Source of the DNA: Ruditapes philippinarum
Taxonomy: Eukaryota
Assembly: GCF_026571515.1 (NCBI RefSeq)
Contig: NW_026857783.1
Coordinates: 50,878 to 114,877, forward strand
Length of the DNA: 64,000 nt
Direction of reading: 5' to 3'
This document shows, in pieces, positions 4,438 to 55,389 of the stretch. Both the position numbers and the translations under genes were made by a program. Each line of letters opens with the position of its first letter. Position 1 is the first letter of the stretch. The notes beneath the pieces were generated by a model. It saw only the letters and a program-made list of their open reading frames with translations, was not told where the DNA came from and searched no databases.

Positions 4438-7188
4438 ATATTGTTATGAATAATATAATTTTGTAAACATTTTGTTTCAAATTTGGGGTTAAAGCTCATT
4501 TATTCCCATAAAATTAAGAAAGAGTAAAATGTCCAAGTAATGTACGATATGATTATTTTCAAAATGTTCTTGGTAAGTATTAAACATATGCTAAAATATA
4601 CTATTTCATTTAACGCTATATTTCATTTTTGTATAAATCAATGATATGATAAAACAACATACCTTGTCTTTAGGACGTCAACACTGTTCAACGTCCAGAG
4701 AATTGTTGCCAATGTGATTGTTACAAACTCCCCTTTCAAATTACATTCATGGTACTTATTCAGTAACGTAATCATCTACATCAAGTTACAAAAGCATGTC
4801 TCTGTTAAATATATTTTGCCTATTCTACGTTTTAAGTTAAAAGAAATGAATACTTTTTATTCTACTTATCATATATGTAAAAGATGAAATATGCGGGTGC
4901 ACCTAAGGTCGAACATGCTCCTAATTCCGACCAAAATATCATAATTCATTTAATATTTCATGTTTAACACAATTCACAAAAGCGACATCATTATAATAAC
5001 GTCACTTTGTCTCTCTTTCCACACGCAACATTTTGAATTTGTTGTTTGTTTTGATTTTGGGCATTCAAGGATATACTTCAATTTTTGGTAAGTCATTTTA
5101 TTTATTAGCTTAATTTTTACAAATTTTTACTAATAATATAAAATGTTGAATATTGATGCTTTAGTCAAATTCTTTTGAAATCAATGATGTAGACAAAAAT
5201 AAAAATCATGTGTGAAGCCCGTGTACATGTTTTAAGGTCGTATGACTGAATAACTGGCTGTGTTCGGAATTACATACTGCACTCACTGAATGTTCCAAAT
5301 TCCGAACAAAAGTTGATAGAGAATGATTCACCCCAGTGGACTCAACAACTACAGCAACTACTGTTGTTACAGCAGCTGTGACTCCTCCTACATCAGCTGG
5401 TAAATTATCGCCGTCAGATATTGTAAACGAATCTGTGCTTGATGAAATTCCTACAGCTTCAACTGATTTAGTCACCACTCCATCTAAGCCATCTACCCTC
5501 GTGTCTCTCTCAGTGGAGCCGACTGTTACATCAACATCATTCATGTTTACTGTGACACCTAACATTGAGACTGATTCTATTACAACACCATCTAAATCTT
5601 CAGATGAATGTGTTCCTAAAGCAACAGACGAATCTATGTCACAATTTAGCAAACATTTAATATTCCCAAAGACTGAAACAAAGAAACCAATAGCACGTAA
5701 AATGATAATGCCAAAAGCAACAGGGGAAAAGTACAGATAATGGTTGAACGAAAAAGCAGAAAAGAAAGAAAAGGGATTGAAAAAAAAACAAGAACGTCAG
5801 AGAGAATGATTACAAAATAAACTCAAGAGAGCCAAATAGCTGAAGGAAAAACAGATTGCACTCGAAAAGAAATGGAAGGATAGAGAAGAAGCGAAGAAAA
5901 AGCTGAGAGAACTGAAGGAGAAAAAGAAGCAAGAGACTAAACAGAACATAAAAGAAATTAAGGCATCCGATTCAGATGATAATATTGCAGTAAGTCCTAC
6001 AAGCTGTTTTAAGTGCAAAACACTTTATGAGGAATATATACAGTGCATAAATTGTTTCAGGCGCTGTTTTTCTTACTGTTGTTGCCGATGAACTTACAGA
6101 CTGCCCGGATGATCTTCCTTTCGAATGTAAATACTGTTAGTGTTGGTGCAACAACATATATTCTCCACATATAGAAAATTACTTGATGCAAACTGTAGTT
6201 ATAGTATTGTCGCTTAAAATATGCTATTGTTTGAATCTTTTTTTTTTGGTATTTGAAACTATATATTTTCCTTTGCGTTGACATTCAATACTTTTTTTGC
6301 AGAAATGAATATGATTAATAAAATTTCTGAACATTTAAAAAATACTTTGATGATTGACAAAACTTATTTCTAAGGTAGATTTATGCCAAAGTACAAAAAT
6401 GGTGTGTATTTGTTTACGAAACATATTTTATTCATATATTTATTTTTAAAAAGTTCCTCATGTTCGGAATAAGGAACACCAATGTTCGGAATTACAATCA
6501 TCGTTCGGTATTAGGGGCAGTAGGTAGATCTTTTGATCGGACGATAATGCTTTTATTTGTATTCGTTAGGGTTTTAAAACTGGCAGCATAATTACTAATC
6601 TATTAAAGTAACCCACTTTGATGTGACAGATTTTAATCCACAATTTTCTGATGTTCATTGTGGTAAAGAATTATGTTTTAATATTATTGGAAAGGATCTT
6701 ACTTGTAATGTAGATAATGCAGTTTTGCAAAACGATAACAATGAGGCCATTATTAAATCAACATGCCTTGGGATAAAAATCTGAAGGATGATTATATAAA
6801 TCAGTTTGATAATATCGATACAAATAATATTACAGAAGAAATGATTAAAATATTAAATGATAAGAATTATAATGATGAATGTATTAATTCCTTGACTGAA
6901 AAACTGTCAAGTATCATAACTAATGCTGCTAAAAGGTGTAATTTAATACAAGAAAAAAAAATTCACAGAAAAGAAAAAATGCAAACTTGACCAAAAATGG
7001 TTTGATAAAGATTGCTCGAAATTTAGAAAGGAATATTACCTAAGCAGAAATACCTATAGGAAAAATAAAACCGAAGGTAATAAAAACCTTATGATGATAA
7101 ACAGTAAAAGATATAAAACAAGAGCGATCAGTAATCACATGTGTCGCCGTCATGATAGGCAAAGTTTCATGTTGGGACACAATTTTGT

Positions 7189-7995
7189 GACAGACAGACA
7201 GACAGACAGACGGACAGTGCACAACTAGGACTTGGTACTGATCATTCCTGTAAAGTTTGGATAAAATTGCACCAGTAGTTTTTATGAGTAGTAGGTCCGG
7301 ACAAGCTTTTTGCGTATCTGAAAAAAACACCTTTTTATCAAAGGGCCATAACTCGGCAAAAATCATTCAACCCGGAAAACCCGTGCAATATGCGCAAGGA
7401 AACTTGAGCTGATCAAATCCTGTAAAGTTTCATTGAAATTGCATGAAGTGGTATAAGAGAAGTAGTCCGGACAAACTTTAAAAATAAAAATTATTTAAAG
7501 GCCATAACTCTGACAAAAATCATTGGAACCGGAAAATGCTGACAATATGCACAACTAGACTTGGTACTGATCATTCCTGTAAAGTTTGGATGGAATTGCA
7601 CCAGTAGTTTATGAGAAGTAGTCCGGAACAAACTTTTGTGTATCTGGCAACACACAGAAAAAGAAACCTTTTAATCAAAGGCCATAACTCGGCCAAAAAA
7701 TCATTCAAACCGGAAAAACCCGTGCAATATACGGCGCAAGGACTTGAGCTACAGATCAATCCTGTCAAGTTTCATTGAAATTGCATTAGTGGTATAAGAG
7801 AAGTAGTCCCGGACAAACTTTAAAATTAAAAATTATTTAAAGGGCCATTAAAACTCTGACAAAAATCATTGAACCGGAAATGCTGACAATATGCACAACT
7901 AGACTTGGTACTGATCATTCCTGTAAAGTTTTGGATGAAATTGCAACCAGTAGTTTATGAGGAGTAGTCCGGACAAGTTTTGTGACGGACGCACG

Positions 7996-8042
<47 letters not shown>
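7189..8042. repeat. Tandem array (~340-bp unit with ~170-bp sub-repeat, 2.3 copies, 7218-7984) bracketed by (GACA)n microsatellites (7189-7217 and 7985-8042)
   Basis: Units start 'gcacaactag(g)acttggtactgatcattcctgtaaagtttgg' at 7218, 7549 and 7893. There are (gaca)7 on the left and (gaca/gacg)14 on the right. ORF 7982-8338 starts inside the microsatellite (DRQTDRQTD...). ORFs 7040-7366 and 7571-7768 are spurious. Confidence 0.85.
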
Positions 8043-8044
<2 letters not shown>

Positions 8045-8092
8045 GAAGTGATCCCTATATGTCGCCACTACTCCGTAGAGGCGACACAAAAA
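8043..8092 (+). mobile_element. Hairpin-bearing tail following the microsatellite (pearl/HINE/Helentron-type 3' region)
   Basis: 'gtgatccctatatGTCGCCactactccgtagaGGCGACacaaaaag' contains a 6-bp stem hairpin. The same architecture (tandem core, then tetranucleotide microsatellite, then hairpin tail) recurs at 25651-26138, 54151-55389 and as a solo tail at 48600-48700. Confidence 0.5.
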
Positions 8093-8094
8093 GA

Positions 8095-9420
8095 ATTTAA
8101 TAAAAAGTTTAAGAGTTTCAATGACAATGTCATAAAAAAACTGAGAGGATTAAAGCATAGTGATCCTAAATCTTATTGGAGTTTATTAAATACATATTCT
8201 TCTGATAAAAAAGTGATAATAAATAAAATAACTAATGAGGTTTTCCATGAGCATTTCAGTAATTTGAATGCAGATATTTTAAGAAATGAAAATGACGTAG
8301 ATAATTTAACAACTTACCAATGTTTAATGAGGCACTGAATTCGCAATTTACTGAGCAAGAAATAGATAAGGCTATAAAGGCGCTTAAGAATAATAAAAGT
8401 CCATCTATATTTGATAATATTCATTAATGAGTATCTCAAAAAAACTCCTGATAATCTGCTGGCTGTACTTACGCTATTTTTTTTAACATTATATAGACTC
8501 GGGTATCTTTCCGGATGTGTGGAGCAAGGGAGTTATCTTACCATTGTATAAAAATAAGGGGATATTAATGATCTGGATAATTACAGGGGCATAACAATAC
8601 TCAGTTGCTTTGGAAAACTTTTCACTTCGGTACTTAATAACAGATTAAATGACTTCTTGAAATCAAACAACATTCTATGTGAAGACCAAAGCAGGTTTTC
8701 AGGAAAGCATTATAGTACTGTTGATCACTCATATTTTCATTTAAAACTTTCTAGTGGACGTTAATCTAGCACATGGAAAAAAGTTGTATTGTACATTTTG
8801 TAGATTTATCGCAAGGCCTTTGATTCTGTTAATCGCACTGGCCATGTGGCATAAATTATTAAGTTACAAAATTGATCGGGAAAGCTTTTAAAATAATACT
8901 CAATATGTATGACAAAGCAAGTCATGTGTTAGTTCGAATAATTTACAATTTCAGATTTTTCACTAGTCATACTGGGAGTAAGACAAGGTGAAAACTTATC
9001 TCCAATATTGTTTTCTCTTTTCTTGAATGATCTAACTAATTTTTATAGTTTGATAAATATGAAGGTTTGCAGTTTCTAAAAGAACATATAAATGATAATG
9101 TTAAGTAATGATGAAATGGAAGTTTTATCTTAAACTGTATTTACTATTGTATGCGGATGACACTGTAATATTGTCAGAGAGCTCTCAGCAGCTTCAGTTA
9201 GCATTAAACGCTATGTTCTGACTACTGCAAGCTTTCGAATCTTGAAGTAAATTCAAATAAAACCAAAGTTATTTTATTTTGGAAAAACCAAGAGAGGTTT
9301 GCGTAATATGCCTAACTTTCACTATGAGGGGACTGTCCTTGAAATTGTTGAGCATTTCTCATTTTTAGGGTTCAAATTTTCATTTAATTAGTAAACTTCA
9401 GCAGAACTAAAACATTCCTT
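8095..9420 (+). pseudogene. Decayed non-LTR retrotransposon (LINE) ORF2 / reverse-transcriptase fragment
   Basis: Three-frame translation gives RT motifs broken by stops and frameshifts: 'FTEQEIDKAIKALKNNKSPS', 'YRGITILSCLGKLFTSVLNNRLNDFLKSNNILCEDQSRF', 'FVDLSQGL...', 'NLSPILFSLFLNDL', 'LYADDTVILSESSQQLQLALNAMF', 'FLGFKF'. Confidence 0.75.
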
Positions 9421-10606
9421 ATTGGATCAAGCCCGTTAAAGCAATGTTTTTCTGTAATTAGGAAATCTTAGGATACTTTTTTTTTACCAATAGATATGCA
9501 ATTACACTTTGTTTGATACAATGATAGCACCCATTTTTTTTATGGGTTGTGAAGTTTCGGGGGTGTTGAAGATGTGAGTGTTGTGGATGAATTTCAAATT
9601 TAAAATACCTAAAGGATAATTCATATGTACAGGTTAAACTTTTTCATCGATTGTTGGTGGCTTGGCTTTGTTTTCTTTTTGTCTCCAATGCTATGATTTA
9701 TGGGAGTTGGGTATTACCCCATTTCAACAACAAATTAAAAGTAGAGTTCTCAATTACTGGGGTAAATAGTTAATTCTAAACATGATAAGATAGTCAGCAT
9801 TCTATATAGAACAACTTCATAATTTATATACTCTGAAATAATATTAATCAGATTGGGGTCTGTTTTGTTCGAAATAATTTAAATAATCTTTTTTTGGATT
9901 GTCGCATTTTTGGATAAATTATCAAAATGTGGATCTCCTGCTTCATTCAAGAAATACTGTCAACTTAAGATTGCGTGATCATTTTATGCAAAATTGGAGA
10001 GTACAATTAATAATTCCTCTCAGTAAAATGTTAAATTACAGGATTTATAAAACAGGATTTTTGTTTTGAACCATACCTCAGCAAGTTAACCTATGAATTT
10101 AGCTTTAATTCTCTTTAAATTTAGAAGTCATGAATCACAAACTTCCATTGAAAAGGGAAAGGTTTATGATATTCCAAGAGAACTTAGAACTTGTAAAACA
10201 CTATGCTACCAGGTAACTCTTTTTAGGCGACCGAAATTCCATTATTCTTTTTGAATGTTCACATTTAGTCAATACAAGAAAGCTGTATCTTGAAAAAAAT
10301 GATTAACTATGAACGTCCAAGTACTTTTAAAAATTTGAAAAATTAATGAACCATAGTAATAAAGATATCCTTTTAGGAAAACTGCCATCATTTTGCAAAA
10401 TTATTAAGTTATTATTTAAATAAAGTTAGCTTTTTAGAATTATGTATTTTTTTTCTCTTTGTTTTTTTTCTCGCAATGATTTTTGATTTTTCTCTCTCAG
10501 TCCTCCATTATCAGTGGCAATTATTACAGTAATTTTATTACATCATGGAGTTGTATGACCATTTATAATTTGCCATTTTGTAGTATTTTGTTTTTACATA
10601 TTATTT

Positions 10607-13158
10607 CACGCCCGTTTAACTCACAACGAGTGAAAAATGTCCATCGGTTAAAATGTTGTGAGCAACTGCCGTTCCTCGTTGTGAGCACCCATCTTTGACG
10701 TGTGACACGATAAACAAGGTGAGTTTTTCATATTTTTTTAAGATTACAGACATTTATATAAAATATCGGAATGCAGTTAGCTAGCGATGTGTTTTTCGAG
10801 TATGCACATGTAAAGATATTGCCTGTTGGTCGACAATTTGATGGAAATATCGTGCGACTCAGTCACTCGGGGTAGCTGGAAAACTGGAGATATCTTCTCT
10901 CCGGACCAAATTTAACATCGAAAAACGTCGATTCTGGTGACGTTTTGTGCATTCTAACCTTAAACAGATGCCCACAAGTCTTCAGCGTAAATTATAATCT
11001 GAAAGTCTTCATAGAAACGAAGATATACCCCTTTTTGCTTTAATCCTCGTTGTAGCACCATAACCTCGTTGTGAGCAAGACAAGCGCAGTGCGTGTATGG
11101 TTTCAATATGTATTTCAGATGGTGAAAAATATAATTTTCAATCTACCAAAGCAATTTAAACGTTTTTGCACAGCAGCATTTCCTTGCAAAGACGTTGTGC
11201 ATACCCCAAAGGGAGTATTTATATTAGTTTTGAACTGTCCGTCTGTCAGTCCGTCAATCTGTCCGAAAACTAAACATTGGCCATAACTTCCTTATTAGTA
11301 AACGGATTTGATTCATATTTGAACACAACATTCCTTAGCACAAGACCTTCCTTTACGACCTGTATTTTTTACCTTGGCCCCTGAATGGCCTTACTTGAAG
11401 GTCAAATTGTCCCAAAACTTAAAAATTTGGTCATAACTTCCTTATTAGCATACGGATTCTACTCATATTTTGAAACAACACCCCTTTAGGCAAGACCTTC
11501 AAACTGATCTGTTTTTTTACCTTGTACCCTGAATGACCTTCTAGAACATCCAAAAACTTTAACATTGGTCATAACTTCTTAATAAGTAAGTGGAATTAGT
11601 TCATATTTGGACACAATGCCCCTTTGGACAAGACCTTGTTGAATTCGTGAAGTTGAAATTGTGAATTCATGAAGTTGAAATCGTGAATTCATGAAGTTGA
11701 AATCGTGAATTCATGAAGTTGGAATCGTGAATTCGTGAAGTTGAAGTCGTGAATTCATGAAGCTGAATCATGAATTCGTGAATTCCGTATTTTGAAAACG
11801 GTAATGCACGAAGTTTAAATTGTGAATTCATGAAGATGAAATAGGAAATTCATGAACTTGAAATGTCCCCACCGGTCTTTCGTAATACACACACATGTGT
11901 TTATCCTGAGCTGAAGACTGACCAAGTTATGTAAAACAAGAACTATCACGGTAAGTTGACAATGCCCCTGAAGTGCTGCTTTGTCCTTTGATTTATGGAC
12001 CAGATAGATTATTTGTTTTTGGACAATTAGATCTTCAATGTGAAGGTCATTCAAGGTCAAGGTGAAATAAATATAGGTCAGTTGGAAGGTCTTGTCCAAA
12101 GGGGCATTGTGTCCAAATATGAACTAATTCCACTTACTTATAAAGAAGTTATGACCAATGTGAATTAATTCCACTTACTTATAAAGAAGTTATGACCAAT
12201 GTTAAAGTTTTTGGATGTTCTAGAAGGTCATTCAGGGTACAAGGTAAAAAAAACCAGATCAGTTTGAAGGTCTTGCCTAAAGGGGTGTTGTTTCAAAATA
12301 TGAGTAGAATCCGTATGCTAATAAGGAAGTTATGACCAATTTTTAAGTTTTGGGACAATTTGACCTTCAAGGTAAAGGCCATTCAGGGGCCAAGGTAAAA
12401 AAATACAGGTCCGTAGGAAGGTCTTGTGCTAAGGGATGTTGTGTTCAAATATGAATCAAATCCGTTTACTAATAAGGAAGTTATGGCCAATGTTTAGTTT
12501 TTCGGACAGATTGACGGACTTACAGACGGACAGTTCAAAACTAATATGCCTCCCTTTGGGGTATGCACAACGTCTTGCAAGAAAACGCTGCTGTGCAAAA
12601 ACGTTTAAATTGCTTTGGTAGATTGAAAATTATATTTTCACCATCTGAATTACATATTGAAACCATACACGCACTGCGCTTGTCTTGCTCACAACGAGGT
12701 TATGGTGCTCACAACGAGGATTAAAGCAAAAAGGGGTATATCTTCGTTTCTATGAAGACTTTCAGATTATAAGTTACGCTGAAGACTTGTGGGCATCTGT
12801 TTTAGGTTAGAATGCACAAAACGTCACCAGAATCGACGTTTTCAATGTTAAATTAGGTCCAAAGAGAAGTTGTCTCCAGTTTTCCAGCTACCTCGAGTGA
12901 CTGCGTCGCACGGTATTTCCATCAAATTGTCCACCAACAGGCAATATCTTTACATGTGCATACTCGGAAAACACATCGCTAGCTAACTGCATTCCGATAT
13001 TTTTATATAAATGTCTGTAATCTTAAAAAATTATAAAAAAACTCACGTTGTTTATCGTGTCACACGTCAAAGATGGGTGCTCACAACGAGGAACGGAAGT
13101 TGCTCACAACATTTTAACCGATGGACATTTTTCACTCGTTGTGAGTAAAACGGGCGTG
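10607..13158. mobile_element. Large foldback (FB-like) element: ~1.03/1.07-kb inverted arms (10607-11637; 12088-13158) around a 450-bp spacer holding a 22-bp minisatellite
   Basis: The arms are near-identical reverse complements from 'cacgcccgtttaactcacaacgagtgaaaaatgtccatcgg' to its rc 'ccgatggacatttttcactcgttgtgagtaaaacgggcgtg'. Each arm has 3 copies of a ~150-bp subrepeat ('ggccataacttccttattag..'), a (gaca)-like tract and many 'ctcacaacgag' mini-palindromes. The spacer 11641-11866 is (gtgaattcatgaagttgaaatc)n with EcoRI sites. ORFs 10483-10698, 11071-11286, 11815-12099 and 12436-12621 are spurious. Confidence 0.9.
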
Positions 13159-15059
13159 TTATTTGCCATTTTGTATTATTTTGTATGTATGTACTGTTTT
13201 ATGTTGTCACATGCCCATATGGGCCCTGACGTATTCAAATAAACCTTTAAACCTTGAATTGAAGAGTTGTCTCTCTTTACTTTTAAGTGCTCATAATTCC
13301 GACCGAGATAAAACGCGGCTTAAGTGTTCGGTAATAGGTGCACCCGCTCTAACATCTTATAGTAAACTTAAAAATTTAAGCACATTTCTTCTTTTTCTTT
13401 CGAAGGCGTCCTACAATTTTCAACCACTGGAATTTCGCAAAAATGTAAACGCTTTTAGCTGAGTTAGATGATTATATGACTATTAGCATAGTTGCTACTT
13501 TCATATATTAATTATTCAAGTTTTAATGCATATATTCATATAATGAATAGTTATTTTACTGAAAGCAACGCTATACTATCGTTAAAAGGCGTGTCTAAGA
13601 AGAAGCAAGCCATGGCGTTAACCTATCTTCAATAATAAATCAATTAGTTGAATATGTTTTATAATGTTACATTTTAAAAACAAATTTCCGGCTCCGTTGA
13701 AAACAACTTTAACACTTTAAAATCTTGCAAAAAAATTCAAAGCGATTAAAGCATTAAGCATCGTGCACTATCAACAGAAAATGCTGTTTTATCTTATTTT
13801 TTTTAATTGAAAATCCGTCGTGCGTTTTTGTACCTGATCTCATTAACATCAATTACTCTACTTAAAAACAAAAGCACATTAAATCAATCAGTAAAAGTGT
13901 AAGGGAAGTTAAAGTAAAAATAAACAAGAATTTATAGGAAACAAATTCACTGCAAAAACATTACATCTTTACGTAAATTAAAGAAGCATGTGCTTTGTAG
14001 TTTTGTCATTTTCGTCTGTACTTTCATTTGTTTCAAACTCATTTCAAAAACATTTACCATTAACTGTTAACTGCAATTATATGAAAAATAAATAATTTGT
14101 CTAAAATATACACATTGTATTCATTTTATGATAGCGAAAAAATAATATTGAAAAATAATGGATATTGAATTTTCAATCAATGATTGATATTCTTTAAACA
14201 GGTAGTGTAAATTATCACCATTTTTCTGGGTTTTTTTTACGTTGTCAACCTATTGCCTTTTGTTTTGTTTACAAGGCTTGCCTCGCTGCGATATAGGTGT
14301 AGGTGTGAGTTGTAATGTAATATATTTGAGGGAAATGCTTTACTTAACGATTCTATCGTTTGCTGCTAGTAATCTTTACGTTTTGATATAATTACCCTTA
14401 AATTTATTTTGGTAAGCCACCATCAAACTAATTCGAAATTATTTGTGCTCTAGAATTATTACAATAGATGAAGTGCGTCGTGGTAAACTGAATAATTAGT
14501 TAATTAGTATGCTATCGTATTCTAATTAATTTATCTCTATACCCAATCACGTAAAATATCACACTTATCAATTAGATTGATAGATCAATTTAGCTTCAAC
14601 ATAAACATGTACAGTTACATGGTAGATAACATTTTAATGCATCAACAAAACATTGGACTATAAAAAGCTCATGTCAATCAAAGTTATATGTTTTCAACAA
14701 AAACACACAAAAAGAGTTAGGAAAACGTATTTTCCCAACGTGGTTTTTGTTTGATATAGGAAGATAGGCAATAAAGAATGATATCATCGCCCAAGAAATG
14801 ATAATGTTAAGCAGTGATACGTCTGTTATTTCTAAAGTTGCACATTCGGTTTATACATAACAGATTATGTAGAGTTCAGCACTCCTCTTCCCATCGGCTC
14901 AATTAGAGTAAAATGTAAGGTAATTGAAGAAAACAAACAACTGCTTAAACAACTTGTTTGTAATGTAATTTAATAATTACAAAGAGTATTTGTTCTAACA
15001 TATGTTTTTTTGTTTTATCTATGTAAGAACTTTGTTCTTAATTATCTAGAAATGAACGC

Positions 15060-17663: not shown

Positions 17664-19058
17664 ATGGAAGTTTTACAGCTATTCTTTTATTTTAGGTGTG
17701 TTCTCATAGTGAAAGGACTTAACAACATGCTTACTAATGAATCGTTATCAAATTACAACAATTCAGATCTAGTGTCTACTTTGATAGCAGAACAAAGTCG
17801 AATCTGCCCTTATATTGCTTTGTGTCATGCATCAAACAGCTCTTCTTTTCAATTTGATAGATCTATGAGCAAATTACCGTGCTGCAAGGCATGTTCGTGT
17901 CAGGACACTTGTGTTCAAGAAGGTTCTTGTTGCCCGGATTATTTCAATGCAGAAGGTATAGATTTTAAGGAAAACCAGACATCACATGATAATAATAAAA
18001 AACCTGTTAGTGCCAGTGCTAACACGACGTTAACACATACACAAGAATGTGTTAAAGTACAACATGGTCGAATACAAAATCAAGACGGTTACATGATGGT
18101 AGCATCATGTCCACCCAACTTTGACGACATTGAAGTAAAAAGGAAGTGTGAAATGAAGATACATCATAGCAACCCCTTCGACATAATTGACAACGTCCCA
18201 GTAACATACGAAGATCAAAGACAAACATATAAAAATCAATACTGCGGACAATGTAACTTGCAAGAAGATGTATTTCCTACATTTTGGCATGTAACGCTCG
18301 TGTGTGATATACATTACTTTTCTTTCAAGTCCATTTCCGCGGTTAATCAATTTGAATTCATAGAGGCCGTTCTATTTACAATGCCTGGGAAGTGTAACGT
18401 AGTCTTTGAGTATGAAACTACAAATATCAGCTTAAATGCAGAACTTCGACAGTGTACATACGACACAATGATCGATAACTGCATCAAAGAACATTCGAAC
18501 ACCTTTCTTCAAACAATGTGCAAGAACTATTTCTGGACTATTACGGTGCAAGTCATTTCTGAAAGAAAAATATACAAAAACTATGCATGCCTGCTCTGTA
18601 ATGAAATAAGCTTCAGGGATAGATGTACAGTAAACCAAGAACTCAAACCAGTTGTTATTCAATTTACATCTATTTTGAACATCACTCGGAAACCATCAAC
18701 TTTCGTCGATACTTCGAAAGATGAACAACATATTATCAATCGTTATTTTCCAAACACAGACGGGGAAATTCGCTGCAAAAAAGGATTCGCACATGATATT
18801 AGAAAGGTATTGAAAATAAAAAAAGTTGTATCGAGTATGTCTTTGTACCCATTGCTTTATTCAACAAACACTTTTGTTATGATTATGAAAATACCCGGAA
18901 CTCCATTAAAGTATGCTATTTTACGTGGCGTCCTGAGTCAGGCTTATTGTTTTTCTCGTTTAGGGCACACGCTTTTTATTACTTGGGGACCTTACGCCGC
19001 TTTTCATGGAATGGCACGGAAGTGTCACATTGAAGGTTCCATGATAACCACCGTATGA
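17664..19058 (+). CDS. Uninterrupted 464-codon ORF for a cysteine-rich (27 Cys) protein with N-terminal hydrophobic leader and a somatomedin-B-like motif (CCKACSCQDTCVQEGSCCPDYF). Probably a large exon or single-exon gene for a secreted/extracellular domain
   Basis: It is the longest ORF in the window, and 1.4 kb without a stop is very unlikely by chance at ~66% AT. The C-x-C-x3-C-x5-CC-x-D-Y spacing matches the SMB domain pattern, with N-glycosylation sequons and a hydrophobic C-terminal stretch. Antisense ORFs 18105-18350 and 18432-18662 are spurious. True start and possible splice exits (e.g. AAAG|GTATTG near 18806) are unresolved. Confidence 0.5.
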   Translation: MEVLQLFFYFRCVLIVKGLNNMLTNESLSNYNNSDLVSTLIAEQSRICPYIALCHASNSSSFQFDRSMSKLPCCKACSCQDTCVQEGSCCPDYFNAEGIDFKENQTSHDNNKKPVSASANTTLTHTQECVKVQHGRIQNQDGYMMVASCPPNFDDIEVKRKCEMKIHHSNPFDIIDNVPVTYEDQRQTYKNQYCGQCNLQEDVFPTFWHVTLVCDIHYFSFKSISAVNQFEFIEAVLFTMPGKCNVVFEYETTNISLNAELRQCTYDTMIDNCIKEHSNTFLQTMCKNYFWTITVQVISERKIYKNYACLLCNEISFRDRCTVNQELKPVVIQFTSILNITRKPSTFVDTSKDEQHIINRYFPNTDGEIRCKKGFAHDIRKVLKIKKVVSSMSLYPLLYSTNTFVMIMKIPGTPLKYAILRGVLSQAYCFSRLGHTLFITWGPYAAFHGMARKCHIEGSMITTV

Positions 19059-19262: not shown

Positions 19263-22083
19263 ATTAAAGAAAGTGCAACGACTGCGTGTGCACACGTGAT
19301 ACTCTACGTAAATGCATGATTTTGTCTCTGCTAATGTATACGTGCGTGCGTACTACTTTTTATGCATGCAAGAATATAGTTCATTTCATGACTTAGAAAA
19401 ATCATATATAGAAAATTATTCTTTTAATGTAATAATGCAATATTTTTTATCATTTTTCTTGTCTCATATACAACATTTTACAATAATTCTAATGGTATAC
19501 CAAAACAGTATACACTGTTGGGCTTTTCAAATTACTGATTATCCCATTAAACTATTATGATTACTGGTATATACCTTAGATGCATTGTTTTTAATGTAAC
19601 AAAATGCTAATAGGCCTGTTTTCCGACTTTCCAAACGCGATTCAAAACAATAAACGGACATTTACTTCAACATTTTACCCGTTCCTGTTAAATAAAGAGG
19701 TCATGATACACATTTGTCTTTTCAATACTAAGTTTATTTGACGGCACCTCGGCCATTATAAGTGATAAAGTTGTTTGTCTACTACTCCATTTCTATTCAG
19801 TATAGTACTCAACAATATATAATAACAGCAGTAAGCAGTCAATGGTATATTAGGTATTATGCATTTTTTAAAACTTATTCCAATTAGTTTGGGAACTTTG
19901 AACCTCTACGTAAACAAATCTTGTTAAAACACCGACACAGCAAATAACAACAAAAAAAACAAACATTGTATCATAGATGAAACTGATCAACGTTTACGGT
20001 AAACACGTAACCTATTGATCATGCATAAAATGCAAGTCTTATTCTTATAGATTAAGCGTCATTGAAATTGATAAAATGTAATATTAAGCTAGCATTAGTG
20101 TAATGGTTGGGTTATATATTTATCCACAACTGACTTTTTAATTGTAGGATGTATGCCGACAACTTTTCATAATTTTTCTTCTTTTCAAGATAGTATATGA
20201 CACTTTTTTTCAAGTATTGGGAAATTTCACCATCCAATTTAAATTGTTAATTTTCAGTGCCACTACCCCTTTTGCACATTTGTAAGGAATTATTTTTGGA
20301 TATGAAATAATTTTGTTTCTGGTAGAAATTACCTATGTTTTTGCTTTTATTTGGGGCCGATACTATTTTAAAAAAGTGATTTTAAGTAACAAGTGACCAT
20401 TTTTCTTTACATCTTTTGTCATCTTGAAAAACAAATCCATGCGCATAAAAGAGGCCCCCTTTTCACAGGCTCAAAAATGGCACATCTTTTCTAACAACTA
20501 AAACAATTTTTTAAATGTAGGTAATCTAATAAGACTTAAATCAAAAGCATCTTCAGATATATTGCAAATAGTCTTGTAAAGTGTCAAAAATAGAAACCAA
20601 GAAGAACTTTCTCCATTAGTAAAAGGTCAGAAATTATGTCATAAATTGCATAAAACGTTAATCTATAGTATATAATAATAATATGCATGAGATTTTATAA
20701 ATATTTTTGTGTGAAACGCACTGTATTTGAAGACAATTTAATGAAAGTGTATAAAACTATATATTCTGGTGCCAGTTGTGAAAAAACTTTTGAGTTTTGA
20801 AAAAGGATACAAATATGAAAGAAATTAGTCAATATATTTTGGATGGTAAAAAATCTTCCATAAATAGCAAAATAATACTTTATTATGGAATATTTTAATA
20901 TGTTTGTATACAATAAACTATATGTGTTTTATGACACAGACATTTTTTCTAAGAACTCGTTTTAGAAACTACTGCAAGATTATTGAAACATCATAATTTG
21001 AATGTAAAAATATTTCATTAGGTAAAGCTTATTTATTGTACCAATTAAATAAAATAAAAATAATAAACCTCTCAATTATTTGATTCAATATTGATATCAA
21101 AGTTTAACCCGTCAAATATATGTAAAAAGCTGAATATCAATGAAAGCAAAGTTATTTACTAGATTCTGTCAAATATGATACTAATGTCGTTGAAAAAAGT
21201 ACTCACTGTGGCATATAATGGAAAAAAGACGTTTAAAAATGTCTAGCTTGTCATCAAATTAAAAGAAAGAAAGGCAGTGTTTAACATTGTCCTAAATTTA
21301 TTTATCGGTTGTTTTTATATATTTTTTTCTTTTCTTATCTTGAATTCTGAAATACTATACCCATAAGATATGTAAAATTATATTTTACTTCAAGGCAATA
21401 AGGTATGCTATAAAAGACATTTCATACCACATTAGAAATTTCTTCCTTACCTAGATACACAATCCAAATCAATAAAAACATTGTGCGTCCTACTGCAATA
21501 ACATTGCCATCATATGTGTAATAATGTGTTCCGATTATACACGATTTCTCTTTGTTCCTATTACAGATTGTAAAAGTAAATAAAATTATTCAAAATATCT
21601 TAAACATTTAAGTTAATAACGTATAAAGTTAATCAGGAAGAGATATGCAAGGTTGGCGTAAATGATATCTGTAAAATCATAAATACTAGTAAAATGTGTG
21701 CGTTATTCAAAACGTGATATAAATTTTGATTAAGATTGTAAATTCAATTCTTATTTAGCTTTTTGAAGAGATCTTGAATACTCGTTTATCATTGACATAA
21801 CTGATAAGGGCGATAAATCATGCATCGGAAGAGCATTTCAAAAAAGATCAAGTTGGACTGTGGGAGAGATTCAGAATAAATATAATTCAGAAACTAATTA
21901 AGCAGTGTTATCACCAATGTGGTTTATAAAACACATTAAATTTTAATATGTTTTTTCTTGTTTTTTCCTTTTTTGTCATTTTTTCAGTTTTGTTTACAAA
22001 AATAGTTAATTACAACTTTTTACTTACTCCTTTCTACGAAAGCCTAATAATATCAAATAAAACAAAAAATAAAAATGCAAAGG

Positions 22084-23668
22084 AGTTATAACGCGTCTAA
22101 AGGCGTTATTATGCGAATCAAAAGGCAAAATTACGCGAAACAAAAGGTGTGATAACGCGAAAAAAAGCGTAACAACGGGAATAAAGGCGAAGTAACACGA
22201 ATATAGGCGTTATAACGCGAATCAAAAGGCATGCTTACGCGAATCAATGCGTAATAACGCGAATAATTGCATAGTAACAAATAAAGGCGTTATAACGCAA
22301 ATCAAAATGTGTATTAATGCGAATAAAAGCGTTATATCGCGACTCAAAAGGCGTAATAACGCGAATGAAAAGGCAAAGTAACGCGAATAAAAGCGTAATT
22401 ACGCAAATAAAGGTGTAAGTATGCGAAAAAGGACGGAGTTACGCGAATAAATGAGTAGTATCGCGAATAAGGGAGTTGTAAGGCGAACCAAAAGACGCAA
22501 TAACGCAAATTAAAACGCATTATAACGCCAATTTAATACCGTATTTATACTAATCAAATGGTCCAATAACGTGAGAAAGGAAGAACAATATTGATCTGAT
22601 TTTTTTGCTCAAGATATAAACTACTGTATAATAACATAATATACATTAATAATAAATATTATTCTATTTGCACAGTAATAATGTAAACTATTTGTCATAC
22701 ACTAATGAAGACTATGTGAGATTTGTCAATATAATGTGACATGGTGACTCATGGGTCCATTAGGCTCGAAATAAATACAGTTACTCTAAATTCACATGTA
22801 TCACATCATTGATTTTACACATGTCACTATTTTATATGTGGGTCATAATTATGTTATTATCTACGGATATGTCCTGTATAATAACCTAATAACCTGTAGT
22901 ATCTTCTCATTATGTGGTTGTCGCTCCTAATACAGTTAAAGGTAATAGGCTATAGGTAAGGAATTGGAAGAAACGTTAGGTATAAGTAAGTCACATAAGG
23001 AATGAAATTGTATCTTAATTATTGAAATGGTGATAATGTTTCGGTTAATTCAGTTAAAATCATAAGTCATAGGGGCCATTGTTTTCTTTGTCTTTGTAGA
23101 AAAGTATCGACTAGTTGGCTTTGAAGAAATGTATCTAATAGTTGGGTGATAGTTAATCACTTATTTGGTAAAAGTCTTTCCTAATAAGAGATTAATAATC
23201 AGACTGTGGTATTAGGACGTATCCGTGAAGAATTGAAAATAAAACGCAAATCTTGATCAATTCACTTAGATCAGCATTGTTCTTTCTTTTTTACATTACC
23301 AGGCAACTTATAATAATTTATATGGTATTGAATAAGTGTTATAACGCCTTTCGTTTTGCGTTATTTCGCATTATTTCGGTTCGCGTTATAACGATTTTAT
23401 GTTCGCGTTATAACGGCTTTGGTTTCGTGTTATAACGCCTTTTAATTCGCGTTATAGCGTCTTTTTTTTTTGCGTTATTTAGCCTTTTGATTCGCGTAAG
23501 TACGCCTTTCGATCAACGTTATAACGCTTTTGTATGCGTTATAACGCGTTAATACACCTTTTGATGCACGTTATTACGCTTTTTTGGTTCTCGTTAATAC
23601 ACCTTTTTTGCGTAACTACACCTTACGCCCTTATTTCGCGTTATTACTCCTATTTGCGTTATAACGTC
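22084..23668. repeat. Foldback-like structure: two inverted arrays of a ~15-bp minisatellite (22084-22540 forward; 23337-23668 reverse) around an ~800-bp spacer
   Basis: The forward arm is (aaaggcgttataacgcgaatc)n-like. The reverse arm is 'gcgttataacgcctttcgttttgcgttatttcgc...'. ORFs 23253-23435 and 23534-23941 are translations of the repeat. Confidence 0.85.
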
Positions 23669-24716: not shown

Positions 24717-25650
24717 GGAATGGTTGGATGATAAAGGCGCTGTTTCTTTAAGCAACACCACGAAAAATGTAGGTTAACAAGAAAACTAGACATTCTTCAC
24801 TCACATGTTTTGTAACTCATGATTATCTTGGACAGTCTCAATCAAACCGAGCTTGCAACATTCCTCATTTGTCATTTTGTTGTTTAATTTTTCTGTGTTA
24901 CACGCACATCATGTATGACAATGTTCATAAGTCTAGCATTTTTTCAAGAGTGATCTCCCCTTTAGTTTAAGAACTTCGCTTTTAAAAATGTTATATCTGG
25001 TGAGAACCAGGGATGCTTAAAGATTAACCATCAGAGTGTCTGTCCATCTGTCTGTCTGTTCTTTCCTAAACATTTTTTCATGAGATCACTTTTAAAGAAT
25101 TTGGAACCTTTCCAACATATTTATTTAAAATAGAGAAAAATTGAAACATTTGTTAAACATATTCATCCTGAAAAATTGTTATCTTTTGATAATTTGTTGT
25201 ATAAACATAATTTCCTTACTGGACAGCAATAATTAATACATTTCTATGATACAAACTATGAACTTAAATTTTTTTGAACGTCAAATTATTTAATTTTCAG
25301 TATTTTTTGTTGTAATTGACTTTAACCTGGTTATTAATATATATTGGATATCTTCATACTTGGACAAAACAACAGTGGCTCTTGTTATGATAAAATCTGT
25401 CAATAAAATTACTTACAAGTTTAAAAGTATGTCTGTGCTATATAATTCCAGAATCTCAAACCATTGAGAACAAAAGCTGTCCGTAAGACAGCGCGCTCGA
25501 CTTTTTTATTGCTTGCCAATAAAAAAAGTTTTTGCAGTAAAAGGCAATACAAGAATCTCTGTATTTTTAAAGTGAACAATGGCCATGAGCATTAAGATAT
25601 TTAGTGAAGAATTATTTTACTGAATTGTGTGATGTGAAATAGCATTAAAA

Positions 25651-26060
25651 GTTTCAAAGCAATATCTCAAAGGGTTAAGGCAATAAGTGGATTTTACCCA
25701 TATTCAATGTATTTTCTAAGTCAAAAAGGGGCATAATTCTGTCAAAAACCTTGACAGAGTTATGTCCTCTTGTCTGTTGATGAAGGTCGTGATGGTAAAC
25801 AAGTATGGTCAGTTTCAAAGCAATACCTCCAATGGTTTTGAAATAAAGTGAGGTGGTACAAAAAACTTAACCAAGCTCAATACACTTTCTAAGTCAAAAA
25901 AGGGCCATAATTCTGTCAAAAACCTTGACAGAGTTATGTACTCTTGTCTGTAGATGGAGGTTATGATGGTGAACAAGTATGGTAAGTTTCAAAGCCATAC
26001 TTGTAATACTTCTGAAATAAAGTGGGGTGGTACGAAAAACTTAACCAAGGTGTGACGCCA

Positions 26061-26091
<31 letters not shown>

Positions 26092-26138
26092 GGCGAGTAG
26101 GATAGCTCCCCTTTTCATAGAAAAGTCGAGCTAAAAAC
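25651..26138 (+). mobile_element. Pearl/HINE-type element: ~170-bp tandem core x2.5 (25651-26054), then (GACGCC)6 microsatellite (26055-26091), then hairpin tail ending 'gagctaaaaac'
   Basis: Core units 'tttcaaagc.ata...gtcaaaaaggggcataattctgtcaaaaaccttgacagagttatg..'. The tail 'agctcccctttt..aaaagtcgagctaaaaac' ends like 55351-55389 ('..ctcaggtgagcttaaaaac'). Confidence 0.7.
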
Positions 26139-26865
26139 ATGTAAAATCTTACGGGTAACTGTCATCATCATTATCATCATTTGTATCATCTTGTGATGGC
26201 ATCTGGATGTTTAGCTTTTTACAGATATTGTGTCACACAGCACATGCAATGACTACCCTTTAATAGACGTAGGACAATAGTTAAATGTAAAAAAAATCCC
26301 AAAAAGTCTGTCTTTGGTTTATCCTTACCTGATTTTTGAATTACAAAATTAACATAACTCATGACAGTTTTAAGTATTTTTCTTTTACAGTAACTAGATA
26401 AATATGTTCTTAATTTTTAGGTTTATAGTTGGTTGACATGCAATTTTAGTAACTACGGTTATATTGCTTACAACTGTTCATATACCATCATACTTAATGC
26501 AAAACATCAAATTCATTGTTAAAATTAAAAGATGCCCTTTCTTTGGGTGATTTTTTTTCTGCAAATAATAGTATTAATGTAAAGATAATTACTTTTGAGA
26601 AGGTATAAATTTAAGCATTTTGACTGGTATTTGTAGGGACCTTATTTACAGCATGTTGGTGATAGTTCTTAAATTCTAAATCTTGATCAATGGCCTATAA
26701 TTTTATGGTCAAAGTTATATAGACATTTTATATATTATATATTGATATTTTTTAAAGCTGTTTGTATATATAATGGAGGGTTTTATTGCCAAGAACCATT
26801 TATGTATGGGTTCATAACATTTCAACATTTTTACATCCAATATTTTTACAACCAATCCAGACCAT

Positions 26866-30154: not shown

Positions 30155-30675
30155 TCTCCAGTACTGTGGCATAGAGGTGACATTGTCAATTTTATTTTAT
30201 CTCGTGGCCACGACTTATTATCTTGAGGCCTCAAGATATTATATCGTGACCACGACTTATTATCTCATGGCCACGACTTATTATCTCAAAATATTATCTC
30301 GTGGCCACGAGTTACTATCTTGTGGCCACGAGATAGTAAGTCGTGGTCACAAGATAATAAGTCGTGGCCACAATATAATAAGTCATGGCTACGAGATAAT
30401 TATGTCGTGGCCACGAGATAATAAGTCGTGGCCATAAGATAATAACTCGTGGCCACGAGATAATATCTTGAGGCCACAAGATAATAAGTCGTGGCCTCAA
30501 GATAATTACTCGTGGCCACAAGATAATAAGTCGTGGCCACGAGATAATAACTCGTGGCCACTAGATTATAAGTCGTGGCCACGAGATAATATCTGGAGGC
30601 CACAAGATAATAAGTCGTGGCCACGAGATAAAATATAACTGCAAATGTCACCTCTATGCCACCGTACTCCAGGGG
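30155..30675. mobile_element. Palindromic-minisatellite foldback/MITE: ~30-bp TIRs around a self-complementary array of 22-bp units
   Basis: TIRs are 'tctccagtactgtggcatagaggtgacatt' and 'aatgtcacctctatgccaccgtactccagg'. Inside, (tcgtggccacgacttattatc)n switches to its rc (gtcgtggccacgagataataa)n at a symmetry centre near 30335-30345, so the whole ~520 bp is one long hairpin. ORFs 30177-30693 on both strands (LVATTYYLVA..) are spurious. Confidence 0.85.
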
Positions 30676-49525: not shown

Positions 49526-49689
49526 TATAATAGACAGTTACTTTTAATTGTACAGGTATATTTGCTTGGTTTTTTAACATGTTATTTTTTGTATTTTATA
49601 ATTTTTGCTCTTTTTAAGCCAATGGCCAAGTAATATCTGATGATACCCATGTACCCTGAAACATTCGTGTTCTTCAGTAATCATATCCT

Positions 49690-50445
49690 ATACATTCATT
49701 TTCTTACTTAGTCACGCCCCTTACAATTATTTTCATGGTCATGCCATGTAGATCTATTTTTCTTACTTTTCATAGACTGTACATCCATATTCTTACACGG
49801 TCACCTTCTTTACAAAGATGTACTTGGTCACGTCCTGTACATCTATGTTCTTACTTGTAATATCCTATACATTTATGTTCTTACATTGCCACGTCCCTTA
49901 CAAACATGCGCTTGGTCACGTCCTGTACATATATATTCTTACCTGTAATGTCCTATACATTTATGTTCTTACATGGCCACGTCCCTTACAAACATGTACT
50001 TGGTCACGTCCTGTACATCTATGTTCTTACTTGTAATATCCTATACATTTATGTTCTTACATTGCCATGTCCCTTACAAACATGCGCTTGGTCACGTCCT
50101 GTACATCTATGTTCTTACTTGTAATATCCAATACATTTATGTTCTTACATTGCCATGTCCCTTACAAACATGCGCTTGGTCACGTCCTGTACATCTATGT
50201 TCTTACTTGTAATATCCTATACATTTATGTTCTTACATTGCCATGTCCCTTACAAACATGCGCTTGGTCACGTCAAGTACATTTATATTCTTACTTGTAA
50301 TATCCAATACATTTATGTTCTTACATGGTCACGTCTCTTACAAGCATGTACTTGGTCACGTCCTGTACACATATATATTCTAACCTGTAATGTCCTATAC
50401 ATTTATGTTCTTACAGGGTCACGACTCTTAAAAACATATAATATA
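49690..50445. repeat. 88-bp satellite (~8.5 copies), with an extra diverged ~1.3 copies at 51950-52065
   Basis: Unit 'cacgtcccttacaaacatg[ct][ga]cttggtcacgtcctgtacatctatgttcttacttgtaatatcctatacatttatgttcttacattgc'. ORFs 49818-50592, five overlapping, are spurious. Confidence 0.9.
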
Positions 50446-51039: not shown

Positions 51040-51560
51040 CTGTCACAGAACTGGCATTTTCATTTCAATACATCTAAATTCTGGAAACAAAGTGATCCCT
51101 CGGAAACATTAATTACAACAAATTAACATAAGAATTTCAGACTCGGTTTGATTGAGTCTGTACATGAGGGATAATGTATAAGTGCAACATCCCTCACACC
51201 CCCTAGCACCGGCTGAGCGGTACTCAATTCTCAACACTTTATAGTGTTGGCATCAATGACCCCGAAGGACCAGAAAATATAACAACACTGAACTTTTTAC
51301 GGCTGCCACACGGCACTTGACACCTGCTGTTGTGAAGTACAAAATTCTGGAAACAAAGTGATCCCTCGGAAGCATTAATTACAACAAAATAACATAAGAA
51401 TTGCAGACTCGGTTTGATTGAGTCTGTACATGAGGGATAATGTATAAGTGCAACATCCCTCACGCCCCCTAGCACTGGCTGAGCGGTACTCAGTTCTCAA
51501 CACTTTATAGTGTTGGCATCAATGACCCCGAAGGACCAGAAAATATAACAACACTGTAGT
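51040..51560 (+). mobile_element. Tandem pair of ~290-bp elements whose 3' ends are hairpin + 7 nt + CTAG (Helitron-terminus-like), diverged relatives of the 4309/19134 repeat
   Basis: '..cagactcggtttgattgagtctgtacatgagggataatgtataagtgcaacatccctcaca(c)cccctagcac[ct]ggctgagcggtactc..' at 51131-51240 and 51391-51500. ORF 51239-51475 is spurious. Confidence 0.55.
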
Positions 51561-54150: not shown

Positions 54151-55389
54151 CAAGGGGGCCATGATGGCCCTAGATCACTCACCTGACCCATTGAACTCGT
54201 CCAAACAATTACCTAGACAAGCATTCTGACCAAGTTTCATAACAGTTGAGTCAAAAATGTGACCACTAGAGTGTTAACTAGGATTATCCATATCTGTGTT
54301 GCCTAGTTTTTTACCCAGGTGACCTATATTCGAACTTGACCTAGAAATCATCAAAACAAACTTTCAGACCAATTTACAGGATATTGGGATCAAAACAGTA
54401 GCCACTTGAGTGTTAACAAGATTTTTCTATTTTTAGCTCCAGAGCCCTAGTTTTTCATCCGAGATGACCAATGTTCGAACTCTTCCTTGCAATTACCTAG
54501 ACAAGCAACCTGACCAAGTTTAATGACACTCGAGTCAAAAATCTGACCGCTAGAGTGTTTACAAGGTTTGTCTATTTTTAGCCCTGGTGACCTAGTTTTT
54601 CATCCGAGATGACCAATGTTCGAAATCATCCGTACTATCACTTAGACAAGCATCCTGGCCAAGTTTGATGTTGATTGAGGCACAAATGTGACCGCTAAAG
54701 TGTTAACAATGTTTTTTTTTCTATTTTTAGCTCTGGTGACCTAGCTTTTCATCCTAGATGATCCATGTTGAAATCATTTGAGCTATCAACAAGATAAGCA
54801 TCCTGAGTAAGTTTGATGATGACTGAGGCAAAAATGTGACCGCTAGATTGTTAACAAGGTTTTTAGTCTTTTAGCTCCGGTGACCTAGTTTTTCTAGACA
54901 GCAAGCTGACAAAGTTTGATGATGATTGATGCAAAAATGTGACCGCTTGAGTGTTAACAAAGTTTTTCTATTTTTAGCTCCTGTGGTCTAGTTTTTCATC
55001 CGAGATGACCCTCGTTCTTGCTCATTCAAGCTATCACCTAGACGCACTCCTGTGACCTAGTTTTTCATCCGAGATAACCCATGTTCGAACTCATTCGAGC
55101 TGTCAACTAGATAAGCATCTTGAGCAAGTTTGATGATTATTGACGCAAAAATGACCGCCCGGGTTTTAGCAAGGTTTTTCTAGTTTTAGCTCCGGTGACC
55201 TTGTTTTTCATCCGAGATGACCCTCGTTCGTACTCATTCGAGCTATCAACTAAATAAGCATCCTGAGTAAGTTTTATGATGATTGAGACAAAAATGTGAC
55301 CGCTAGAGTGTTAACAAACAAGTGTGGACGGACGACGGACAGACGACCCTAAAAGCTCACCCTGAGCAAGCTCAGGTGAGCTTAAAAAC
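54151..55389 (+). mobile_element. 1.2-kb tandem-repeat element (pearl/HINE/Helentron-associated type): 5' palindromic head, ~8 units of ~135-150 bp, (GGAC)n-like tract, hairpin tail '..agctcaccctgagcaagctcaggtgagcttaaaaac'. The insertion is proven by an empty paralogous site
   Basis: The flanks 53330-54150 and 55390-55700 are collinear with 63040-64000, where 'acatataaa|gaaaac|tatttaacc' (63763-63786) is uninterrupted. Here it reads 'acatataaa[CAAGGGGGCCATGATGGCCC....CAGGTGAGCTT]aaaaactatttaacc'. The repeated core motif is 'ctagtttttcatccgagatgacc'. Confidence 0.85.

Follow-up and report, generated by a model that had tools for sequence, protein, structure and literature searches.

A candidate non-autonomous foldback-like transposon with HINE-type inner arms in Ruditapes philippinarum DNA

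Results

General structure of the element

A stretch of 64,000 nucleotides of Ruditapes philippinarum DNA (contig NW_026857783.1, positions 50,878 to 114,877), hereafter referred to as the window, harbors a 2552-bp structure at positions 10607-13158 that consists of two long inverted arms separated by a short centre. On balance, we consider this structure to be probably a non-autonomous foldback-like transposon that arrived as a single unit and has since aged into a relic; it represents a new family within a known structural class and not a new kind of system. Structural traits of the foldback class are present: arms of 1031 and 1073 nt in an element of 2552 nt, a short non-coding middle, and internal tandem repeats in the arms. 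The limits of the element were set by the end of arm complementarity and by the end of homology to a metagenome contig, MOXH01001544.1 (L003), which carries a related terminus. The main parts of the element are as follows.

10607..13158, no strand assigned: whole foldback-like element, 2552 bp, with the boundary written as TT/CACGCCCG
10607..11637, plus strand: left arm, 1031 nt
12086..13158, minus strand: right arm, 1073 nt, with a 41-bp tandem duplication (12116-12202) that is missing from the left arm
11640..11864, plus strand: minisatellite of the centre with a 22-bp unit (GTGAATTCATGAAGTTGAAATC), in about 10 units that become degenerate at the end of the array
11865..12014, no strand assigned: central unique or decayed-repeat segment, without a motif copy and without inverted symmetry

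The original prediction had described the arms as almost perfect reverse complements. The inverted arms are real, but this wording is too strong, and the right arm begins at 12086 rather than at 12088. In a blastn self-comparison, 10607-11607 matched 13158-12157 with 95.3% identity over 1011 columns, and 11582-11637 matched 12141-12086 with 100% identity. A global MAFFT alignment of 10607-11637 with the reverse complement of 12086-13158 contained 1024 aligned columns, of which 38 are mismatched (96.3% identity); among its 12 indel events, the biggest is the 41-bp tandem duplication found in the right arm only. A block of 12 mismatched columns (11353-11364) is probably a single small indel event, so the real substitution divergence of the arms is likely closer to 3%. 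The arms differ by approximately 3-4% plus indels, and both the 96.3% identity and the 12 indel events argue against a very recent origin or ongoing gene conversion of the arm as a whole.

The centre (11638-12085, 448 bp) is asymmetric. The 22-bp array reported there earlier was recovered by Tandem Repeats Finder (TRF) at 11640-11782 as 6.5 copies that are 90% alike, with a degenerate continuation to 11864. It starts abruptly within a 150-bp unit of the left arm and has no other occurrence in the window. The segment of ~ 150 nt that follows it grades into decayed ~ 150-bp units of the right-hand array.

The structure could also be an assembly artefact, that is, a chimeric or inverted join of reads derived from a direct array, from two alleles or from paralogues. 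Errors in long-read libraries and in assembly are known to produce palindromes, which in such cases are usually near-perfect and without a structured spacer. In the present case, however, the arms differ at the 38 aligned positions and by the 12 indel events described above, the 448-bp centre is asymmetric, and the junctions with the unique flanks fall exactly at the conserved terminus on both sides. We therefore regard an artefactual origin as very improbable.

Terminal module, repeated motif and hairpins of the outer arms

Over its outer ~ 630 nt, each arm consists of unique, non-repeat sequence, the outermost ~ 490 nt of which forms a terminal module, which we refer to as module X. Both outer ends of the element terminate at the identical nucleotide of one terminal sequence, CACGCCCGTTT(A/T)ACTCACAACGAGTG. 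The features of the outer arms are listed below.

10607..11097, plus strand: left terminal module X, unique sequence, 79% identical to L003 2218-2705 (blastn, alignment)
12667..13158, minus strand: right terminal module X, mirror copy (blastn, alignment)
10620..10685, plus strand: left terminal hairpin, in which CTCACAACGAG (10620-10630) pairs with CTCGTTGTGAG (10675-10685), with a partial copy, TGTTGTGAG, at 10653-10661
13080..13145, minus strand: right terminal hairpin, mirror of the left one, with a stem that stops 13 nt from the right end; z -2.4 (DNA fold)
11047..11075, minus strand: left internal motif pair, the first copy minus one base and the second exact (11065-11075), in the 14-mer context TGCTCACAACGAGG
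12688..12718, plus strand: right internal motif pair, both copies exact

Each arm carries four copies of the 11-nt motif CTCACAACGAG, arranged as an inverted outer pair and a tandem inner pair. The outermost copy lies 13 nt from the tip, and a perfect inverted copy is located 44 nt further in, with a partial copy between them, 22 nt away; the inner pair, ~ 440-470 nt from the tip, shares the 14-nt context TGCTCACAACGAGG. All seven exact matches to the motif in the window fall inside the arms, and with at most one mismatch there are eight matches in the window against 0.47 expected. Beyond these counted matches, each arm also holds one degenerate and one partial copy, while the centre contains no copy even at two mismatches. 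The clusters of 'ctcacaacgag' mini-palindromes noticed previously are genuine as far as enrichment and confinement to the arms are concerned, but the motif is not palindromic by itself: only copies in opposite orientation pair as a hairpin. At the left end, this pairing yields an 11-bp stem with a z-score of -2.2 (DNA fold), starting 13 nt from the end.

HINE-type module and ~ 150-bp repeats of the inner arms

The inner part of each arm has a different character. HINE elements, which are non-autonomous Helentrons, are defined by subterminal inverted repeats (subTIRs) of 11-15 nt, the 5' one lying 2-4 nt from the tip, and by a complementary inverted repeat (IR) 1-22 nt away (PMC7492417, PMC4067079); in Cg_HINE elements, the left flank is closed by GTCY microsatellites (PMC7492417). 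Remnants of such a module, followed by satellite-like repeats, were recognized in both arms.

11201..11227, plus strand: left HINE-type 5' palindrome remnant (ATACCCC aaa GGGAGTAT ttATATTAG), read from the sequence
12541..12564, minus strand: right HINE-type 5' palindrome remnant, mirror of the left one
11237..11265, plus strand: left GTCY microsatellite remnant, 29 nt
12503..12531, minus strand: right GTCY microsatellite remnant, 29 nt
11266..11637, plus strand: left array of ~ 150-bp satellite-like repeats, ~ 2.6 units
12015..12502, minus strand: right array of ~ 150-bp repeats, ~ 3.3 units, extending 71 nt past the paired arm into the centre

The remnant at 11201-11227 is of the same module type as L003 2790-2830 and the 5' ends of window elements at 1478 and 8090. 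The GTCY remnants, which correspond to the GACA-type tracts noted earlier, lead directly into the ~ 150-bp units in both arms, as in the left flank of HINE elements. The arms had been described as built from ~ 150-bp subrepeats; these repeats exist, but they take up only the inner 370-490 nt (a third to a half) of each arm, the outer ~ 630 nt being unique. Weaker similarity to the right array reaches ~ 11940. The possibility that the 22-bp array of the centre is an amplified 3' palindrome of the HINE module of the right arm was considered and rejected, as the match to a candidate 3' subTIR was too weak.

Mirrored ~ 150-bp units of the two arms are 99-100% identical, while neighbouring units share only 79-87%. 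This contrast indicates that the arm was copied whole, after the array had diversified; judging from the sequences, the two repeat arrays did not expand independently. The same observation bears on an explanation in which two members of the family inserted independently, in tail-to-tail orientation and separated by a few hundred bp, and then lost their inner 3' parts, so that the foldback was never mobile as a unit. HINE-type elements are very dense in the window, complex nested or recombined loci have been reported in oysters, and an arm difference of 3-4% would suit two members of one family. On the other hand, both arms contain the same ordered array of individually recognizable units with near-complete mirror identity, an identical 6-bp sequence brackets both outer ends, and the centre contains neither an inverted pair of 3' ends nor a motif copy nor host-like DNA, although a later deletion could have removed these. 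Two separate insertions are consequently an improbable source of the structure.

Four canonical HINE-like elements were read by eye elsewhere in the window, at 1478-2935, 7140-8090, 25461-26140 and 54100-55400. Each comprises a 5' palindrome (subTIR and IR), a microsatellite (GTCATTCC, GTCT, GACGCC or GTCY), tandem repeats of 145-175 bp, a 3' subTIR with a palindrome, and flanking Ts, a layout that matches the descriptions of oyster Cg_HINE and of DINE-1/HINE elements (PMC7492417, PMC4067079). The element at 7140-8090 splits a reading frame similar to that of long interspersed nuclear elements (LINEs).

A related terminus in a metagenome contig

A scan of public metagenome contigs with the terminal hairpin pattern found L003, in which positions 2218-2705 are 79% identical to the outer ~ 490 nt of both arms. 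The homology starts exactly at the terminal nucleotide (CACGCCCGTTTAACTCACAACGAGTG), and TT precedes it, as at the left end of the present element. Blocks identical between the arms and L003 comprise the first 26 nt, a stretch of 42 nt across the hairpin's inner half (right arm), a block of 20 nt with similarity to a splice donor, and both copies of the internal motif pair. Against the 79% background, the perfect runs thus measure 26, 42 (right arm) and twice 20 nt; when the 106 mismatches were placed at random by permutation, the probability of a longest run of at least 41 nt was 0.003, and that of at least three runs of at least 26 nt was 0.0003. The 11-bp hairpin stem is also preserved in L003 (z -3.75, DNA fold) despite a different loop. 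In this comparison, the motif-bearing blocks behave like constrained cis-acting sites.

Past module X, L003 continues with ~ 85 poorly alignable bases, then a HINE-type palindrome that is still intact (TATACCCCGACATA..TATGTCGAGGGGTATATAG) and, ahead of the contig end, a GTCC microsatellite. The local alignment score of this inner stretch against the window was 48, compared with a mean of 26 +/- 4.6 for shuffled sequences. Because the same succession is seen in L003, the terminal module together with the HINE-type module is taken to be an inherited unit of a transposon family and not an accident of this locus. The G+C content of L003 (40.5%, against 32% in the window) makes it likely that the contig comes from a different organism. 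Neither the HINE type of the inner module nor the presence of a conserved terminal module in what is probably another organism had been recognized in the original prediction. A reading of module X as a complete small HINE ending near 11097, with the internal motif pair acting as 3' subTIR ahead of a palindrome, found no support: the sequence after the motif pair forms no significant hairpin (z 0.3 and -0.5), while L003 remains weakly homologous beyond this point.

The expectation that other copies would share the termini was borne out only weakly, by the one related terminus of L003; in the window, blastn detected no further copy of the element or of its terminus. Scans of prokaryotic genomes revealed no relative and a single chance match, in a Rhodoblastus metagenome-assembled genome (L005), that shared the motif only. 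A second metagenome match (L004, 56% GC) likewise had only the motif in common and was discarded as a chance hit. The viral genome collection gave 0 matches for three DNA patterns, and the motif strings retrieved only unrelated primer matches from the literature.

The 20-nt block mentioned above, TAAACAAGGTGAGTTTTTCA at 10711-10730, is mirrored in the right arm and resembles a consensus splice donor (AAG/GTGAGT). The left arm agrees with L003 (~ 2322-2341) exactly, and the right arm shows one change, G to C. This block could be a leader exon/intron boundary from an autonomous ancestor. Outside the element end, L003 contains a frameshifted transposon-like coding remnant (1-670), repeats of ~ 223 bp that include CCCCTCCCG palindromes (1255-1635) and, at ~ 1680-1720, a (GA)n(GT)n tract.

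Flanking sequences and the target site

The sequences immediately adjoining the element include two sets of direct repeats.

10601..10606, plus strand: left candidate 6-bp target-site duplication, TTATTT
13159..13164, plus strand: right candidate 6-bp target-site duplication, TTATTT
10568..10591, plus strand: 24-nt direct repeat (ATTTGCCATTTTGTAGTATTTTGT) in the left flank, host DNA, 15 nt from the left end
13161..13184, plus strand: 24-nt direct repeat in the right flank, 2 nt from the right end

A 9-bp target duplication of the type left by FB elements, as had been suggested, is absent: the 9-bp flanks (ATATTATTT and TTATTTGCC) agree at only 4 of 9 positions, and the comparisons at 7 and 8 bp fail as well (3/7 and 3/8). 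Instead, the perfect agreement is at 6 bp (TTATTT) and, trivially, at 2 bp. A perfect 6-bp match of this kind would arise by chance with a probability of ~ 0.0006 for random site pairs in the window and of ~ 0.003 when both flanks are T-rich. The junctions (..TTATTT/element/TTATTT.. here and ..GGTT/element in L003) are compatible with a TT target. The two copies of the 24-nt repeat are 23/24 identical and stand in a different register from TTATTT. They were also tried as a target duplication of 24-41 bp, which was rejected, since they stand at unequal distances from the two ends of the element and their similarity falls to 9/15 beside the left end; the 24-nt repeat is probably a small tandem repeat (period ~ 35 bp) of the T-rich target that is older than the insertion.

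Both outer boundaries lie on the same nucleotide of a conserved terminus, with one and the same 6-mer on either side. This speaks against an origin by segmental inverted duplication of host DNA and indicates either arrival as a single unit or in-place remodelling of one element.

Coding and RNA content

Stop-to-stop translations of the arms (concatenated, 709 aa) and of the centre together with the repeats and near flanks (877 aa) had no homologue among 5.8 billion proteins, and the longest stop-to-stop frame measures 97 codons. As these frames lack homologues, the element is without coding capacity; the protein homology searches with its open reading frames (ORFs) detected no transposase remnant. 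Scans for tRNA genes and Rfam families gave nothing above noise, the best Rfam match being a sub-threshold hit to mir-3145 inside the 22-bp array (E = 0.47).

Discussion

Relationship to known foldback elements

The general architecture agrees with the FB/foldback assignment of the original prediction in that the inverted arms are long and modular and the middle is non-coding; it departs from that of Drosophila FB in that tandem repeats do not extend out to the tips. Long inverted arms with internal tandem repeats, a potential to form hairpins, and non-coding copies with a non-coding centre are shared with FB and with Mutator-type foldbacks, and they would speak for membership in that classical family. 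However, FB elements have short tandem repeats almost to their tips and generate 9-bp duplications, neither of which is observed here: the outer 630 nt of the arms is unique rather than composed of short tandem repeats, and no duplication of 8-10 bp is present (the best 9-bp comparison being the 4/9 given above), nor is there any transposase remnant. Because of the missing 9-bp duplication and the unique outer arms, we place the element outside the Drosophila FB/Mutator family, membership in which we judge highly unlikely.

A closer structural parallel is Tetris, a foldback-like element of Drosophila virilis that comprises flanking, tandem-repeat and non-coding middle domains (PMC4079207). Tetris is likewise non-autonomous, with long inverted arms (up to 1.7 kb), a unique outermost flanking domain, satellite-like tandem repeats of ~ 150-220 bp and a variable non-coding middle domain, and few of its copies are structurally complete (PMC4079207). 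The likeness is one of architecture; Tetris is assigned to Mutator and produces duplications of 8-10 bp (PMC4079207), whereas a 6-bp repeat flanks the present element, and the repeat module described here differs from that of Tetris in having a HINE-type palindrome and a GTCY microsatellite ahead of it. Galileo, a foldback-like element of the P superfamily, has long arms whose internal repeats hold secondary transposase-binding sites (PMC4079207), and the repeated 11/14-nt motif could play a similar role in our element. Compared by description only, Galileo differs in its 7-bp duplications and in having coding copies. The foldback-like class is thought to have arisen recurrently from different superfamilies as the transposase was lost and the inverted repeats grew longer (PMC4079207).

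Possible origin and mode of mobility

The following course of events would account for the features of the element. The outer module X, of ~ 490 nt, would carry the cis-acting sites, namely, the 11-nt motif (14 nt in the internal copies), and the inner part would represent HINE-type cargo consisting of the 5' palindrome remnant, the GTCY microsatellite and the ~ 150-bp satellite-like repeats. Once the units of the array had diverged from one another, a copy of ~ 1 kb from one end would have been placed, in inverted orientation, onto the other end, likely through template switching while the element was being repaired or replicated; this would have provided both ends with identical recognition sites. 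An enzyme supplied in trans by an autonomous relative would then bind the motifs and move the unit, and insertion into T-rich DNA beside a decayed LINE would leave the 6-bp duplication TTATTT. The pre-insertion site would accordingly have been ...CATATTATTTGCCATTTTG..., with a single TTATTT. Motif binding, mobility as a unit, the mode of arm copying and the class of the enzyme are what we infer from these features. The perfect 6-bp duplication, the symmetric ends and the subterminal motifs in both orientations are compatible with cut-and-paste transposition, and owing to the 6-bp duplication, a cut-and-paste type enzyme is favoured, if only by a little, over a rolling-circle enzyme of the Helentron type.

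The latter enzyme belongs to an explanation in which the element is a symmetric Helentron-type derivative (HINE) that was moved by rolling-circle transposition and inserted between Ts without a duplication. Under this scheme, module X would be a long HINE left flank, the 11-nt motif would be the 5' subTIR, and its nearby complement would be the IR; the asymmetric 3' module would have been exchanged for an inverted 5' module, and the mirrored hairpin 13 nt from the 3' end would serve as the terminator. The inner module does have the layout of a HINE left flank, with a palindrome (subTIR and IR), a GTCY microsatellite and ~ 150-170-bp repeats (PMC7492417, PMC4067079), and the palindrome, the microsatellite and the short ~ 150-bp array in the inner arm are also familiar from Cg_HINE, DINE-1 and 'pearl' elements (PMC7492417, PMC4067079). 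Further points of agreement with HINEs are the T-rich target, with Ts on the plus strand at both sides of the element and at the 5' end of the L003 copy, the 11-nt subterminal inverted repeats, the hairpin near the end (13 nt from the 3' end), and the occurrence of at least four canonical HINE-like elements in the window.

Several details do not fit this scheme. The candidate 5' subTIR lies 13 nt from the tip, compared with 2-4 nt in described HINEs, and the perfect complement of the motif is 44 nt away, compared with 1-22 nt. HINEs are asymmetric, with a left flank of 50-100 bp and a right flank of 60 bp that has its own palindrome (PMC7492417, PMC4067079); their 5' and 3' modules are distinct, whereas the ends of the present element are symmetric over 1 kb. 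A distinct HINE 3' module (the last ~ 60 nt, with a 3' subTIR and palindrome) is not present in the element, the 3' end mirroring the 5' end, and the centre holds no separate 3' module or motif copy. The mirror arms of 1 kb, the additional outer module of ~ 490 nt and the candidate 6-bp duplication are further differences from HINEs, and since TTATTT includes an A, a plain T-run target does not explain it. Overall, we rate a symmetric Helentron derivative as unlikely, albeit worthy of serious consideration; that the mirrored 5' subTIR/IR hairpin acts as the rolling-circle terminator of such a foldback seems to us more doubtful still.

The idea of a foldback-like transposon that arrived as a unit has its own difficulties, which have to be set against the evidence presented above. 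The plus-strand Ts at the left end and at the L003 end, the hairpins near the ends and the HINE-type cargo suit a Helentron equally well. The TTATTT repeat is one case, in T-rich and locally repetitive DNA, and the same flanks contain the 24-nt direct repeat in another register. A single full copy was seen, and the sole related end lies on a contig too short to reveal a foldback. The arms come from assembled sequence, and their divergence of 3-4% makes present-day mobility doubtful.

Provided that the element is indeed such a transposon, it would be a foldback-like element in which a conserved end module is joined to a Helentron-type module of microsatellite and satellite repeats. It would then likely constitute a molluscan case of the repeated origin of foldback architecture from different transposon lineages, and it would add to the evidence that foldback-like elements carry and spread satellite-like repeats. 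Should the symmetric Helentron alternative prove true, the element would form a structural bridge from HINE/'pearl' to foldback or MITE-like elements, and one type of end would be enough for Helentron mobilisation. With a single copy in hand, the result is mainly a well-characterised annotation and not a discovery.

Genomic neighbourhood

The window has a G+C content of 32%, contains no matches to RNA families and is rich in short arrays of 145-175-bp repeats beside GACA/GTCY-type microsatellites, a content that points to a bivalve mollusc. Directly 5' of the foldback element, on the plus strand at ~ 8040-10450, lies a decayed non-long-terminal-repeat (non-LTR) retrotransposon with frameshifts and stops; this LINE context is based on the RVT_1 match alone (8558-9076, E = 6e-8). 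A similarity of the left flank to the C-terminal region of another LINE-like ORF of the window was unsupported by BLASTP and was dismissed.

On the other side, the element lies 4.5 kb upstream of a gene-like cysteine-rich ORF of 464 aa (17664-19058), and an inverted repeat of 1 kb in this position might be a site of hairpin formation, rearrangement or hairpin RNA production. Homologues of the ORF product (DUF8401, PF28443) were found only on metagenome contigs (L001, L002), with 88% amino-acid and 92% nucleotide identity for a JGI contig and 48% identity for ENA contigs. The gene-position index has no record of the exact product, and the contigs with homologues (1.4 and 3 kb) are too short to reach the position of the element.

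A second inverted structure was observed at 22079-23584. It consists of arrays with a unit of ~ 21 bp (AAAGGCGTTATAACGCGAATA) at 22079-22532 and, beyond a spacer of ~ 800 bp, of arrays in reverse complement at ~ 23338-23584, the arms being 72-84% complementary. With arms made of short tandem repeats, this structure resembles the classical FB architecture more than the element at 10607-13158 does. Other tandem repeats of the window include two adjoining 21-bp arrays at 30197-30631 (TTATCTCGTGGCCACGACTTA, and TCGTGGCCACGAGATAATAAG with ~ 16 copies), the unit having the palindromic core TCGTGGCCACGA, an array of 8.5 copies of an 88-bp unit at 49683-50437 (87% matches) and a 266-bp repeat present in 1.8 copies at 51076-51556 (97% matches). 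The ORF at 57833-58198 encodes a Ninjurin domain (PF04923, E = 8e-12) and is probably an exon of a host gene.

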